DNA of 64,000 bases from Escherichia coli (GTDB lineage Bacteria; Pseudomonadota; Gammaproteobacteria; Enterobacterales; Enterobacteriaceae), in assembly GCF_965641715.1 (NCBI RefSeq), contig NZ_OZ282453.1; one strand, 5' to 3'. This document shows positions 30,001 through 42,000 of the stretch, in pieces (within the stretch, counting starts at the first letter, position 1; each line of letters begins with the position of its first letter). Made by a program: the position numbers.

Positions 30001-33000
30001 TTCTCCGCCGAAGGTAAAGTGGTGCGCTTTAAAGAGTCTTCTGTCCGTGCGATGGGCTGCAATACCACTGGTGTGCGCGGTATTCGTTTAGGCGAAGGCG
30101 ATAAAGTCGTCTCTCTGATCGTACCTCGTGGTGATGGCGCAATCCTCACCGCAACGCAGAACGGTTATGGTAAACGTACCGCAGTGGCGGAATACCCAAC
30201 CAAGTCGCGTGCGACGAAAGGGGTTATCTCCATCAAGGTTACCGAACGTAACGGTTTAGTTGTTGGCGCGGTACAGGTAGATGACTGCGACCAGATCATG
30301 ATGATCACCGATGCCGGTACGCTGGTACGTACTCGCGTTTCAGAAATCAGTATCGTGGGCCGTAACACCCAGGGCGTGATCCTCATCCGTACTGCGGAAG
30401 ATGAAAACGTAGTGGGTCTGCAACGTGTTGCTGAACCGGTTGACGAGGAAGATCTGGATACCATCGACGGCAGTGCCGCGGAAGGGGACGATGAAATCGC
30501 TCCGGAAGTGGACGTTGACGACGAGCCAGAAGAAGAATAATTTCATCGCTTCATGCCAAAAGGGAGCTATCTCCCTTGTTTGAATTGAAAAGTCCAGGCT
30601 GCAAAGTCTGGGCTTTTGTCGTATTAGGGCGCGGTAAAGTTTGGCTGTGCCCGTAAAAAATGGCTGGCTATACACAAGGAATGTGGCAATGAGTGGTGAA
30701 AAAAAGGCGAAAGGCTGGCGGTTCTATGGTCTTGTAGGTTTTGGCGCAATAGCACTGCTTTCCGCTGGTGTCTGGGCGTTGCAATATGCTGGCAGTGGGC
30801 CAGAAAAAACGTTGTCGCCGCTGGTGGTGCACAATAATCTGCAAATCGATCTCAATGAGCCGGACCTCTTTCTCGACAGCGACTCTCTGAGCCAGCTTCC
30901 CAAAGATCTCCTTACCATTCCGTTTCTCCACGATGTTCTTAGCGAAGATTTCGTTTTCTATTATCAGAATCATGCCGATCGTCTGGGCATTGAAGGCAGC
31001 ATTCGCCGCATTGTCTATGAACACGATCTCACGCTGAAAGATAAGCTCTTTTCGTCACTCTTAGATCAGCCCGCGCTGGCGGCGCTGTGGCACGATAAAC
31101 AAGGCCATCTTTCACATTACATGGTGCTGATCCAGCGCAGTGGTTTAAGCAAACTGCTGGAGCCATTGTTGTTTGCCGCTACCAGCGACAGCCAGTTAAA
31201 CAAAACGGAAATCAGTAGCATCAAGATAAATAGTGAAACTATTCCTGTTTATCAGTTGCGCTATAACGGCAATAACGCCCTGATGTTCGCGACATATCAG
31301 GACAAGATGCTGGTGTTTTCCAGCACGGATATGCTGTTTAAAGATGACCAGCAGGATACGGAAGCCACGGCGATCGCAAGTGATTTGTTGAGCGGCAAAA
31401 AACGCTGGCAAGCCAGCTTTGGCCTGGAAGAGCGTACTGCCGAAAAAACGCCAGTACGCCAGCGTATCGTAGTCAGCGCCAGGTTGCTGGGGTTTGGCTA
31501 CCAGCGATTAATGCCTTCTTTTGCTGGCGTACGCTTCGAAATGGGTAACGACGGCTGGCACAGTTTTGTGGCGTTAAATGATGAATCCGCCAGCGTAGAT
31601 ACCAATTTCGATTTTACGCCGGTCTGGAACAGTATGCCTGCCGGGGCCAGCTTCTGTGTGGCGGTGCCGTATTCACACGGTATTGCCGAAGAGATGCTTT
31701 CGCACATCAGCCAGGAAAACGACAAGCTGAATGGGGCGTTAGACGGTGCCGCGGGGCTGTGCTGGTATGAAGACTCAAAATTGCAAACCCCGCTGTTTGT
31801 CGGTCAGTTTGATGGCACTGCCGAACAGGCGCAATTGCCAGGGAAACTGTTTACGCAAAATATTGGTGCGCACGAAAGCAAAGCGCCAGAAGGTGTTTTG
31901 CCGGTAAGCCAGACTCAGCAGGGCGAAGCGCAAATCTGGCGTCGCGAAGTGAGTTCCCGATACGGCCAGTATCCGAAAGCGCAGGCGGCGCAACCCGATC
32001 AATTAATGTCGGATTATTTTTTCCGCGTGTCGCTGGCGATGCAAAACAAAACGCTGCTTTTCTCCCTCGATGACACGCTGGTTAATAACGCCCTGCAAAC
32101 ACTGAATAAAACCCGCCCGGCAATGGTGGATGTAATACCCACTGATGGCATCGTTCCGCTCTATATCAATCCACAAGGCGTGGCGAAACTGCTGCGTAAC
32201 GAAACGTTGACCAGTCTGCCGAAGAATCTCGAACCGGTTTTTTATAACGCCGCACAAACTTTATTAATGCCGAAGCTGGACGCTTTATCTCAACAACCGC
32301 GTTATGTCATGAAGCTGGCCCAGATGGAACCCGGTGCCGCCTGGCAGTGGCTACCCATAACCTGGCAGCCGCTATGAGGAACGGGCTGCTGGCGCTGATT
32401 TGCTGGCTGTGTTGTGTTGTTGCCCATAGCGAAATGCTGAATGTCGAACAATCCGGGCTGTTTCGCGCCTGGTTTGTACGCATTGCACAAGAACAGCTCC
32501 GCCAGGGGCCAAGTCCACGCTGGTATCAGCAGGATTGTGCGGGCCTGGTGCGATTTGCGGCGAACGAGACGCTGAAAGTTCACGACAGTAAATGGCTAAA
32601 AAGTAACGGTTTATCTAGCCAGTATTTGCCGCCAGAGATGACGCTAACACCTGAACAGCGGCAACTGGCGCAAAACTGGAATCAGGGGAACGGGAAAACC
32701 GGACCCTACGTAACCGCGATTAATTTGATTCAGTACAACAGCCAATTTATTGGCCAGGACATAAACCAGGCGCTGCCTGGCGATATGATTTTTTTCGATC
32801 AGGGCGATGCCCAGCACTTAATGGTCTGGATGGGGCGTTACGTCATCTACCACACCGGAAGCGCCACGAAAACTGACAACGGAATGCGCGCAGTCAGTCT
32901 GCAACAACTTATGACATGGAAGGACACCCGATGGATACCCAACGATTCCAATCCCAATTTCATTGGCATTTATCGTTTAAATTTTCTGGCGCGATAGCAG

Positions 33001-39000: not shown

Positions 39001-42000
39001 GTTTAGTCTCAGGTTTCCCCTATACCGATCGGCAGCAGAAACGGCTGTTTATTCGTAACTTCTTTACGCTTCAGGATCGGCTGGATTTAACCCATGAGTA
39101 TCTGCACCTGGCCTTTGATGGTTATCCTACCGGGCTTGATGAGAACTATATCGAAACGCTGACCCGACAATTATTAATGGACTAATGCTATGCGAAAGAT
39201 TTTTCTTCCGTTGTTACTGGTGGCGCTTTCGCCTGTCGCTCACAGTGAAGGTGTGCAGGAAGTCGAGATTGACGCACCGCTCTCAGGCTGGCATCCGGCA
39301 GAGGGCGAAGATGCCAGTTTTTCACAATCGATCAATTACCCGGCGTCGTCCGTCAACATGGCAGATGATCAAAATATCTCAGCGCAGATCCACGGCAAAA
39401 TAAAGAATTATGCTGCGGCGGGTAAAGTTCAGCAGGGCCGGCTGGTGGTCAACGGTGCCAGTATGCCGCAGAGAGTTGAATCCGATGGTTCATTTGCACG
39501 CCCTTATATTTTCACTGAAGGCAGCAACAGCGTGCAGGTCATCAGCCCGGATGGGCAAAGCCGACAAAAAATGCAGTTTTACTCAACGCCGGGTACAGGA
39601 ACGATTCGTGCACGTTTACGGCTGGTTCTCTCGTGGGATACGGACAATACCGATCTCGATCTCCATGTTGTCACGCCCGATGGAGAACACGCCTGGTACG
39701 GTAACACCGTGCTGAAAAACAGTGGTGCACTGGATATGGATGTCACGACGGGGTATGGACCCGAGATTTTCGCCATGCCAGCGCCAGTTCACGGGCGCTA
39801 TCAGGTGTATATCAACTACTATGGTGGGCGCAGCGAAACGGAATTAACCACCGCCCAACTGACGCTGATCACCGATGAAGGATCGGTCAATGAGAAACAG
39901 GAAACATTTATTGTACCGATGCGTAATGCTGGCGAGCTGACGCTGGTGAAAAGTTTTGACTGGTGATCCATCCCTTCACACAACCTGGCTCTTTCTTTTT
40001 TCAGATAAGACTGCTGGGCGATCTGCCGACGCCAGGATATAACCATTAACAAGCGTCGGCAGATTGGTCATTTCTTTTTTTTCGTACTGAGAACTGTCCA
40101 TTTACTCCGGCTTTCCTGGTTAAGGCAATGGTTTCTAAGCGATACGCATTATTGCAATGGTGACAGAACATTGCGGTAACACGCTTTTACCGCTACCTTA
40201 ACCACACTCCATCGGTCACCTGAGGCGGAGCTTCGCCCCTTTGAAATACCTTGCTTCTTTTCGTACAACCCTGAAAGCCTCGCGCTACATGTTCAGAGCA
40301 TTGGCGTTAGTGCTCTGGCTGTTGATTGCTTTTTCATCCGTTTTTTACATCGTTAATGCGTTACATCAGCGAGAATCGGAAATTCGTCAGGAATTTAATC
40401 TGAGTTCCGATCAGGCTCAGCGCTTTATTCAACGCACCTCTGATGTGATGAAAGAGCTGAAGTACATCGCTGAAAATCGCTTATCGGCAGAAAACGGTGT
40501 GCTTTCCCCGCGTGGACGAGAAACGCAGGCGGATGTGCCTGCGTTTGAACCGCTGTTTGCCGACTCCGATTGTTCCGCAATGAGTAACACCTGGCGAGGT
40601 TCTCTGGAGTCATTGGCGTGGTTTATGCGCTACTGGCGCGATAATTTTTCTGCGGCTTACGATCTCAACCGGGTATTTTTAATCGGCAGCGATAACCTCT
40701 GCATGGCCAATTTCGGTCTGCGTGATATGCCAGTGGAACGCGATACCGCGTTGAAAGCGTTGCATGAACGCATCAATAAATATCGAAATGCACCACAAGA
40801 TGATAGCGGCAGTAACCTCTACTGGATCAGCGAAGGTCCGCGCCCTGGCGTCGGGTATTTTTACGCGTTGACGCCAGTTTATCTGGCGAACAGGTTGCAG
40901 GCGCTTTTGGGTGTCGAGCAGACCATCCGGATGGAGAATTTTTTCTTACCGGGTACGTTGCCGATGGGGGTTACCATTCTTGATGAAAATGGTCATACCC
41001 TGATTTCGCTTACCGGACCAGAAAGCAAAATTAAGGGCGATCCTCGCTGGATGCAGGAACGCTCCTGGTTTGGCTATACGGAAGGTTTCCGGGAGCTGGT
41101 GCTGAAGAAAAATCTGCCTCCCTCATCGCTAAGCATCGTTTATTCGGTGCCGGTTGATAAGGTGCTGGAACGCATTCGCATGTTGATCCTTAACGCAATT
41201 TTGCTGAATGTGCTTGCTGGAGCTGCATTGTTTACTCTCGCGCGGATGTACGAGCGGCGTATTTTCATTCCGGCGGAAAGCGATGCCCTGCGACTGGAAG
41301 AACATGAGCAGTTTAACCGCAAGATTGTCGCCTCCGCGCCAGTGGGTATCTGTATTTTGCGTACCGCAGATGGCGTCAATATTTTAAGTAACGAACTGGC
41401 GCATACCTATCTCAATATGCTTACGCATGAGGACCGCCAACGGCTGACACAAATTATCTGTGGGCAGCAGGTCAATTTTGTTGATGTCCTGACCAGCAAT
41501 AATACCAATCTGCAAATCAGCTTCGTCCATTCGCGCTATCGTAATGAAAACGTGGCCATTTGTGTGCTGGTGGATGTTTCTTCGCGCGTGAAGATGGAAG
41601 AGTCGTTGCAGGAGATGGCACAAGCAGCGGAACAGGCGAGCCAGTCAAAATCGATGTTCCTTGCCACCGTCAGTCATGAGCTGCGAACGCCGCTGTATGG
41701 CATTATCGGTAACCTGGATCTTTTGCAAACCAAAGAGTTACCGAAAGGCGTCGATCGTCTGGTGACGGCAATGAACAACTCTTCCAGCCTGTTGTTGAAA
41801 ATTATCAGCGATATTCTCGATTTCTCGAAGATTGAATCGGAACAGTTGAAGATCGAACCGCGTGAGTTTTCACCGCGTGAAGTGATGAACCACATCACCG
41901 CCAACTATTTACCGCTGGTGGTACGCAAGCAGTTAGGCTTGTACTGCTTTATTGAACCGGATGTGCCAGTGGCTTTAAATGGCGACCCGATGCGTTTACA

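Follow-up and report, generated by a model that had tools for sequence, protein, structure and literature searches.

The yfaATSQP locus of Escherichia coli as a probable five-gene version of the class 2, MagD-type macroglobulin system

The DNA analyzed here is a stretch of 64,000 nucleotides from an Escherichia coli genome (contig NZ_OZ282453.1 of the RefSeq assembly GCF_965641715.1; hereafter, the window), in which five consecutive genes on the plus strand, yfaA, yfaT, yfaS, yfaQ, and yfaP, span positions 30689 to 39966. These genes probably constitute the five-gene enterobacterial version of the class 2 (type II, or MagD-type) alpha-2-macroglobulin (A2M) system. The system as such is already known: its genes are named and nearly universal in E. 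coli, and its class has been described since 2004, when Budd et al. reportedly defined two classes of bacterial A2Ms. The window itself offers nothing new; what is added here is a predicted fold for YfaQ, with candidate catalytic residues placed on a structural model, and a putative catalytic triad of YfaT that is invariant in sequence alignments. The analysis covered how the genes are laid out, which domains they encode, the missing thioester, orthology to the Mag proteins of Pseudomonas, synteny, and purifying selection.

In the magABCDEF operon of Pseudomonas aeruginosa (PA4492-PA4487; the COG numbers of each Mag protein are listed in PMC3735191), the order B-C-D-E-F is the same as yfaA-T-S-Q-P, and both operons encode members of the DUF2138, DUF1175, A2M, DUF2300, and DUF2135 families. 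An earlier note, made from the nucleotide sequence alone, had named these four DUF families and proposed the comparison with mag. Pfam searches confirm the families (with E-values of 3.6e-288 for DUF2138 in YfaA, 1e-57 for DUF1175 in YfaT, and 5.6e-17 for DUF2135 in YfaP, and two DUF2300 matches in YfaQ), and the correspondence with mag extends to both gene order and family content, with the gene for MagA missing in E. coli. For four of the proteins, the NCBIfam collection contained no model. Identity to the proteins of related Pseudomonas species is 68-77% for YfaT, the best conserved protein of the operon, as against 42-57% for the others: 51-56% for YfaS, ~52-57% for YfaQ, ~42-49% for YfaA, and ~50-57% for YfaP, the latter value referring to the downstream Pseudomonas copy (in the MagF position), whereas identity to the upstream copy (in the MagA position) is ~40%. 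A separate comparison of YfaS with its Pseudomonas orthologues gave 54-56%. The two systems also share a homologous bait region, a macroglobulin that lacks the thioester Cys and has a signal peptide without a lipobox, and a transmembrane helix on the DUF2138 protein. They differ in that the thioester site is further degraded in E. coli (GVIN) than in the 60 of 80 loci, all of the Pseudomonas clade, that read GVEQ and that Gac/Rsm regulation is a Pseudomonas feature of mag.

The class 2 family was first described as an A2M accompanied by four extra genes (PMC3328433), which places the five-gene form inside it; E. coli carries macroglobulins of both classes (PMC3328433, PMC5764988). At the sequence level, the window displays the A2M architecture without a CxEQ motif, the four DUF partners in a fixed order, and a Sec signal without a lipobox on YfaS combined with a transmembrane helix on YfaA. 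The six-gene layout with MagA first is not found, nor are the type I hallmarks, a CxEQ thioester and a lipobox Cys in a protein encoded beside pbpC. The view of the earlier note, that YfaS is of the MagD type rather than the YfhM/ECAM type, is thus supported by the partner proteins, the thioester site, and the homology of the bait.

YfaS had been taken for an A2M from its size and composition, and domain searches bear this out. Its Pfam domains are MG2 (MG, macroglobulin domain), A2M_BRD, A2M (MG7), and bMG10. A family profile of 25 orthologues, searched against the Protein Data Bank (PDB), matched the structures of ECAM/YfhM (4RTD, 5A42, and 4ZIQ; E of ~6e-13) and also Sa-A2M, C5, CD109, and TEP1, in an alignment that takes in the start of the thioester domain (TED). 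The single YfaS sequence, searched against the PDB, weakly matched CD109 and C5 at the level of MG2 and did not reach ECAM, so the family profile was required to find both ECAM and the thioester site. The MG-type motif DKxxYxPGE is repeated in yfaS at positions 34293, 34923, and 35229, and a repeat search inside the operon found nothing beyond echoes of MG-domain motifs. Judging by these matches, YfaS has kept its MG domains and bait region as well as a TED-like domain.

The type I proteins, ECAM/YfhM and Salmonella Sa-A2M, share with YfaS the MG domains, bait, TED, and bMG10. YfaS is predicted to be periplasmic and attached to the inner membrane as they are, and the genes of both types are accompanied by genes for peptidoglycan-related proteins. 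However, type I keeps CLEQ and traps covalently, whereas YfaS has no CxEQ; and the type I protein is a lipoprotein that is encoded beside pbpC and has penicillin-binding protein 1c (PBP1c) as a partner, whereas YfaS is not a lipoprotein, is encoded beside yfaT and yfaQ, and comes with four accessory proteins. With the eukaryotic A2M, C3-C5, CD109, and TEP1 proteins, YfaS shares MG2-type domains, an alignable N-terminal TED helix, and the principle of having a bait or linker region ahead of MG7. Unlike them, it lacks the thioester, the receptor-binding function, and a demonstrated oligomeric cage, and would be tethered through a partner protein.

The loss of the thioester can be followed at the residue level. 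The earlier note had counted two cysteines in YfaS and no C-x-E-Q signature. Re-translation agrees on both: the only Cys are residues 30 and 1194 (in the numbering of the maximal, 1539-residue frame), and C-x-E-Q is absent throughout the full translation. When ECAM YPYGCLEQTASGLFP is set against YfaS in the profile alignment, GCLEQ, within the ECAM core YPYGCLEQTAS, stands opposite GGVIN; the homologous site is therefore present in YfaS, but with C-L-E-Q turned into G-V-I-N. When each species was represented by one genome, 504 genomes encoded YfaS relatives, and the counts of thioester sites and synteny given here refer to the best 80 species-level loci among these. In 82 sequences, from the 80 loci plus L001 and L002 as references for E. 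coli, the site reads GVEQ in 60, CVEQ in 11, GV[IV]N in 10, and CGVEQ in a single one (P. jinjuensis, L065). All GVEQ loci belong to the Pseudomonas clade, and the 11 macroglobulins with an intact GCVEQ (L011, L016, L018, L021, L023, L026, L028, L034, L039, L056, and L080) are all encoded in six-gene operons of that clade. On a neighbor-joining tree, lineages with CVEQ branch at scattered points close to the base of the Pseudomonas clade, which points to repeated loss of the thioester, degradation having gone furthest in the enteric proteins, and suggests at least three independent losses of the Cys. Since E. coli has the state without a thioester in common with Serratia, Edaphovirga, and Superficieibacter, this state must be old. 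Retention of CVEQ in mag-type macroglobulins was considered as a novel observation and dropped, since PMC3328433, in stating that class 2 macroglobulins lack CxEQ “in many species,” shows it to have been known before.

The bait region of YfaS is homologous to that of MagD, which has been defined experimentally (PMC5764988). It is rich in Arg and Lys, and the residues N, S, R, V, K, L, E, R, P, R, R, and E of the bait stretch are invariant in 25 family members.

The length and export signal of YfaS needed revision. The earlier note had reported an uninterrupted frame of 1539 residues; the frame is indeed uninterrupted, and its maximal extent (32916-37535) does encode 1539 residues, but translation likely begins at ATG 32931 and yields 1534. 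This start is preferred because of the Shine-Dalgarno sequence GGAAGGA 6 nt upstream, the extent of the K-12 feature, and the normal signal peptide that it provides. It makes yfaS overlap yfaT by 67 nt, and an overlap of ~64-67 nt is kept in nearly all loci; the 3' end of yfaT (32920-32997), read in another frame, carries both the Shine-Dalgarno sequence of yfaS and its start codon. The predicted signal peptide comprises residues 1-38 (32931-33044) and ends in ANA, before DD, with Ala38 invariant in the family. The first Cys of YfaS (Cys25 in the 1534-residue numbering) lies inside this peptide, and orthologues do not conserve it. A lipoprotein attached through the Cys of “IAAC” was rejected because that Cys is unconserved and the invariant AxA site lies downstream of it. 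The N-terminal extension “MDTQRF...” was also set aside as a functional peptide, its conservation being explained more simply as a by-product of the invariant YfaT C terminus, WKDTRWIP, in another frame. In the sole RefSeq record examined, that of E. coli PS10-3, the Prokaryotic Genome Annotation Pipeline (PGAP) starts the protein at GTG 33021, which gives 1504 residues and strips off the entire signal peptide. A model of this length also represents a cluster with 40,950 member sequences. Widely propagated as it is and without the signal peptide, the 1504-residue model would mislead predictions of localization.

The earlier note had ascribed an N-terminal signal or anchor sequence to all five products, and each of them indeed has one hydrophobic segment, located at the N terminus. 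The predicted signal peptides end in VVAHS (before E) in YfaT, in TLA (before EE) in YfaQ, and in VAHS (before E) in YfaP. YfaA has a predicted transmembrane helix at residues 9-34 (30713-30790) and no convincing cleavage site, and is therefore taken as an anchor and not as a secreted protein; by analogy with MagB, it is predicted to anchor the complex in the inner membrane and to stabilize it. Its predicted model, with a predicted local distance difference test (pLDDT) score of 71, gave weak fold matches. The yfaA homologue of E. albertii NBRC 107761 (L005, 7750-9444) contains an in-frame TAG, possibly the mark of a pseudogene or a sequencing error.

A search with YfaT found the P. aeruginosa MagC crystal structure (PDB 7BK8) with an E-value of 2e-103, and YfaT has a weak Pfam match to NlpC/P60 (0.0015). 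As cited in PMC10318531, MagC is a structurally solved, peptidoglycan-binding, NlpC/P60-like protein. The putative triad of YfaT consists of Cys55 (32536-32538), His148 (32815-32817), and His160 (32851-32853). The spacing between the two His is 12 residues. All three residues and the WKDTRWIP motif are invariant in 80 sequences. With a fold relative and a Cys-His-His triad, YfaT has the sequence features of a papain-like member of the NlpC/P60 group and may be catalytically competent.

For YfaQ, Pfam reports, besides DUF2300, one match to SpoIID, and a literature search found no paper on the fold of DUF2300. The two DUF2300 matches cover residues 84-205 (37785-38150) and 412-532 (38769-39131), each with an E-value of ~1e-42; the two segments show no mutual similarity in BLASTP and have different predicted folds. 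An AlphaFold2 model of YfaQ (pLDDT, 79.5) resembles, on the one hand, class D beta-lactamases, BlaR1/MecR1 sensor domains, and transpeptidase domains of penicillin-binding proteins (PBPs) and, on the other hand, SpoIID/SleC lytic transglycosylases. Foldseek assigns the beta-lactamase/PBP fold with an E-value of ~1e-5 and a probability of 1.00. In the model, this fold occupies the N-terminal domain (residues ~24-245; 37605-38270), and the C-terminal half (residues ~256-549; 38301-39182) is predicted to be SpoIID-like. The motif PLGS60xWK63 is found at the N terminus of helix 59-72, S108-C-G after helix 101-106, and K195-T-W on strand 192-200 of the model; none of S60xxK63, S108, K195-T-W, and E334 varies among 23 homologues, and they occupy the positions of the catalytic motifs of the fold. 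Glu334 (38535-38537) is part of YVARVLxREA and lines up with the Glu in the “GEM” segment of SpoIID, taken here as the catalytic residue. YfaQ differs from the beta-lactamase/PBP fold in its third motif, KTW instead of KTG, and its profile match to SpoIID spans the first third of the SpoIID model and falls below the NCBIfam cutoffs. On this structural model, YfaQ may be catalytically competent.

A 9.6-kb query (9601 nt) spanning the locus matched, with 95-99% identity, 5398 of the 5426 E. coli genomes that are complete, and its coverage was at least 80% in 5178 of them. RefSeq annotates the identical five genes, and the window is collinear with the genome of E. coli PS10-3. The order A-T-S-Q-P is invariant in 80 of 80 loci, which come from Escherichia, Superficieibacter, Serratia, Edaphovirga, and Pseudomonas. 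The loci of Enterobacterales have five genes, whereas those of Pseudomonas have six, the extra gene being an upstream YfaP paralogue, MagA; this paralogue is present in all complete Pseudomonas loci and in none of the Enterobacterales loci retrieved. The YfaS family is commonest in soil- and plant-associated Pseudomonas. In comparisons with E. whittamii, E. albertii, and Superficieibacter, the ratio of nonsynonymous to synonymous substitution rates (dN/dS) was 0.02-0.12 for all five genes, as expected for functional genes under strong purifying selection. Taken together, this distribution, synteny, and selection go well past what chance would produce. In E. coli, the site of the locus in the core genome is fixed, with gyrA on one side and either rcsC or ato on the other.

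The earlier note had described yfaS of K-12 as a frameshifted pseudogene. The gene (b4500 of MG1655) does carry a pseudogene flag, yet in length it equals the gene in the window, and its lesion is not a frameshift but a single in-frame TGG-to-TGA change, W1368* (positions 8300-8302 of locus L002 from NC_000913.3). K-12 is a natural yfaS mutant, so phenotypes of the system in E. coli must be sought in strains with an intact yfaS, such as that of the window.

Table 1. Coordinates of the yfaATSQP genes, YfaS sites, and operon boundaries in the window
Feature	Position	Strand	Description
yfaA	30689..32377	+	ATG start; 562 aa; DUF2138; MagB counterpart
yfaT	32374..32997	+	ATG start; 207 aa; DUF1175, NlpC/P60-like; MagC counterpart
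yfaS	32931..37535	+	1534 aa (likely start); probable class 2 bacterial alpha-2-macroglobulin; MagD counterpart
yfaQ	37536..39185	+	GTG start; 549 aa; MagE counterpart
yfaP	39190..39966	+	ATG start; 258 aa; DUF2135; MagF counterpart
Bait-region core of YfaS	35481..35501	+	TNRSERR, aa 851-857; homologous to MagD bait ANRSERG (aa 847-853)
Degenerate thioester site of YfaS	36135..36146	+	G-V-I-N, aa 1069-1072, at the C-L-E-Q position; profile alignment to 4RTD and 5A42
Codon Trp1368 of yfaS	37032..37034	+	TGG in the window; TGA nonsense codon in K-12 MG1655
Upstream boundary	30560..30621	+	Two hairpins 3' of the gyrA stop (30540); RNA fold dG -37.5 kcal/mol, z -3.9
Downstream boundary	40015..40082	+	14-17 bp hairpin and U-rich run (40071-40082); dG -30.9 kcal/mol, z -4.4

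Translation of the five frames, which contain no internal stops, confirmed the coordinates and junctions given in the earlier note. The yfaA stop and the yfaT start overlap in ATGA (32374-32377), the TAA of yfaS (37533-37535) abuts the GTG of yfaQ with no gap, and 4 nt separate the yfaQ stop from the ATG of yfaP. The ATG of yfaA is preceded, 8 nt upstream, by AAGGA, the maximal frame starting from TTG 30641. The operon is flanked by gyrA (27913-30540) on its 5' side and by rcsC (40241-43090) on its 3' side. The gap of 148 nt between gyrA and yfaA holds a likely terminator: the second upstream hairpin (30588-30617), followed by a U-run, looks like the terminator of gyrA, and a consensus scan also reports 30560-30577. 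Ahead of rcsC, the hairpin at 40015-40070, with its U-run extending to 40082, is terminator-like; the consensus terminator scan missed it because its loop is long. An Rfam search found no RNA families inside the operon region, and the GC content of the operon is normal, 0.49-0.56.

The 3' flank varies. In the window, rcsC directly follows yfaP, with 39967-40240 between them, and the Rcs envelope-stress genes rcsC, rcsB, and rcsD are the immediate neighbors of the operon. In K-12, the ato genes (atoC, atoD, atoA, atoE, and atoB in the region retrieved) lie directly 3' of yfaP, and in many E. coli genomes the match stops at position 9468 of the 9601-nt query, which is the junction 3' of yfaP. 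The eco gene, for ecotin, a periplasmic serine-protease inhibitor, is located at ~55403-55891 on the minus strand, ~15 kb downstream of the operon. Elsewhere in the window, Rfam matches are the MicF small RNA upstream of ompC and several intergenic naRNA4/REP-type elements, jointly at 46941-47034 (-), 43090-43280 (+), 55068-55376 (-), and 20050-20113 (+).

The functions of the partner proteins and the target of the system, which the earlier note had regarded as not established, have been partly established in Pseudomonas (PMC3735191, PMC5764988, PMC10318531, PMC12663445), and it is this literature that provides the data on non-covalent trapping, anchoring by MagB, complex formation, and protection against type VI secretion systems (T6SS). 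The MagD bait is cut by trypsin, chymotrypsin, and papain, and following bait cleavage MagD traps tobacco etch virus (TEV) protease non-covalently; MagB, with its transmembrane helix, is needed for the membrane localization, stability, and in vivo processing of MagD, and MagA and MagF each bind MagD at 1:1 (PMC5764988). The Mag complex is located at the inner membrane (PMC3735191). In a 2025 CRISPR interference (CRISPRi) screen, the mag operon protected cells against the peptidoglycan-targeting T6SS effectors VgrG3 and Tae1 (PMC12663445).

By analogy, the E. coli complex would be expected to behave as Mag does. One translationally coupled transcript would give rise to the five proteins, all of which, with the exception of YfaA, would be exported by means of Sec signal peptides. 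YfaA, held in the inner membrane by its N-terminal helix, would tether and stabilize the 165-kDa YfaS on the periplasmic face, as does MagB, and YfaP would be a MagF-like accessory subunit that binds YfaS. An incoming hydrolase would cut the conserved basic bait of YfaS and become caged without a covalent bond, and YfaT, as a peptidoglycan-binding NlpC/P60-like protein, together with YfaQ would link the trap to the cell wall and possibly process or repair the wall. The net role of the system may be to shield the periplasm and the sacculus from foreign hydrolases, such as proteases and wall-targeting T6SS effectors.

Several observations weigh against this reading. The searchable literature yielded no experiment on the E. 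coli YfaATSQP proteins, and E. coli, like other Enterobacterales, lacks MagA, the upstream MagF paralogue, which is a partner in the six-gene Pseudomonas complex. VgrG3, which belongs to the best-documented target class in Pseudomonas, is described as a lysozyme/chitosanase-like enzyme that attacks glycan strands and is not a protease (PMC12663445), so that protection against it is not obviously explained by a trap sprung by bait cleavage. The bait is highly conserved and not hypervariable, as would be expected of cleavage that is specific or regulated more than of a trap with a broad spectrum. As for the partners, MagE has a signal peptide but was reported to be cytoplasmic (PMC3735191), DUF1175 has been listed as inactive (PMC10318531), and hhalign found no sequence similarity between the YfaQ family and the verified OXA-10, which leaves the PBP-like call for YfaQ without support at the sequence level. 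Finally, a scan for the sigma-70 consensus in the 70 nt upstream of yfaA found no promoter, and gene spacing and terminators are the only indications that the five genes may be transcribed as one unit.

Some of these observations would be accounted for if the complex were mainly a machine for the surveillance or repair of peptidoglycan, in which YfaQ and YfaT are active enzymes, YfaS is a scaffold or damage sensor and not itself a protease inhibitor, and the cut in the bait is a switch that turns the enzymes on. This main rival explanation is tentative, even if it would make sense of the conserved bait, of the invariant S60xxK63, S108, K195-T-W, and E334 of YfaQ, the last aligned with the “GEM” Glu of SpoIID, and of the invariance of the YfaT triad. 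It is also consistent with the findings that MagD is processed in vivo only in the presence of MagB and that processing is apparently blocked in a magE deletion (PMC5764988), with a phenotype specific to peptidoglycan-targeting effectors, a muramidase included (PMC12663445), and with the pairing of type I A2M with PBP1c as a parallel (PMC5764988). However, neither MagC nor MagE is known to have enzymatic activity, the listing of DUF1175 as inactive and the KTW motif and missing sequence-level support of the PBP-like fold tell against it, the SpoIID matches are partial and under the cutoffs, and MagD alone traps a protease in vitro (PMC5764988). A role in colonization, with YfaS neutralizing host or gut proteases that enter the periplasm after damage to the outer membrane and the partners serving only folding and stability, appears rather unlikely. 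A colonization factor directed at host proteases is said to have been the original proposal of Budd et al. The Arg/Lys-rich bait of YfaS and the near-universal presence of the locus in E. coli, a gut commensal, would agree with it, as would the cleavage of the MagD bait by trypsin, chymotrypsin, and papain and the reportedly lower virulence of magD mutants in a chronic infection model (PMC5764988). Yet the family is commonest in Pseudomonas from soil and plants, the three peptidoglycan-related modules of the operon would not be needed for a purely anti-host-protease role, and the clearest knockout phenotype in the literature considered is interbacterial, against the T6SS (PMC12663445).

Two further explanations are both highly improbable. 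A multigene envelope module of unknown function bears a general resemblance to a defense system, which raised the idea of an anti-phage or mobile defense island; this reading was rejected because PADLOC gave no matches to the five proteins at an E-value of 0.01 or lower, and the fixed core-genome site from gyrA to rcsC or ato, the normal GC content, and the absence of mobile-element genes from the flanks likewise speak against it. Alternatively, the locus could be a decaying, nonfunctional remnant, with the thioester loss and the K-12 pseudogene as steps in gene loss. The nonsense codon in K-12 yfaS, the in-frame TAG in yfaA of the E. albertii type strain, and assorted truncated forms in the databases could be read in this way, but dN/dS is low in all five genes, yfaS included, the full-length form, with 40,950 member sequences, makes by far the largest cluster, the thioester-less state is old and shared with Serratia, Edaphovirga, and Superficieibacter, and MagD, which itself lacks the thioester, is active (PMC5764988).

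A further suggestion is put forward tentatively: the class 2 operon could encode a trap coupled to cell-wall enzymes and not a trap with passive chaperones. YfaQ/MagE would then be an enzyme or sensor that combines an acyl-serine domain with a SpoIID-type transglycosylase, YfaT/MagC would have a working Cys-His-His site, and cleavage of the bait would signal or license local repair of the wall. If true, such an enzyme-coupled trap would mirror the pairing of type I A2M with PBP1c, and wall repair licensed by the bait would explain the protection against muramidase and amidase effectors of the T6SS. The predicted domains of YfaQ and the triad of YfaT provide testable handles on how a homologue of protease traps may guard against T6SS effectors that degrade the cell wall.

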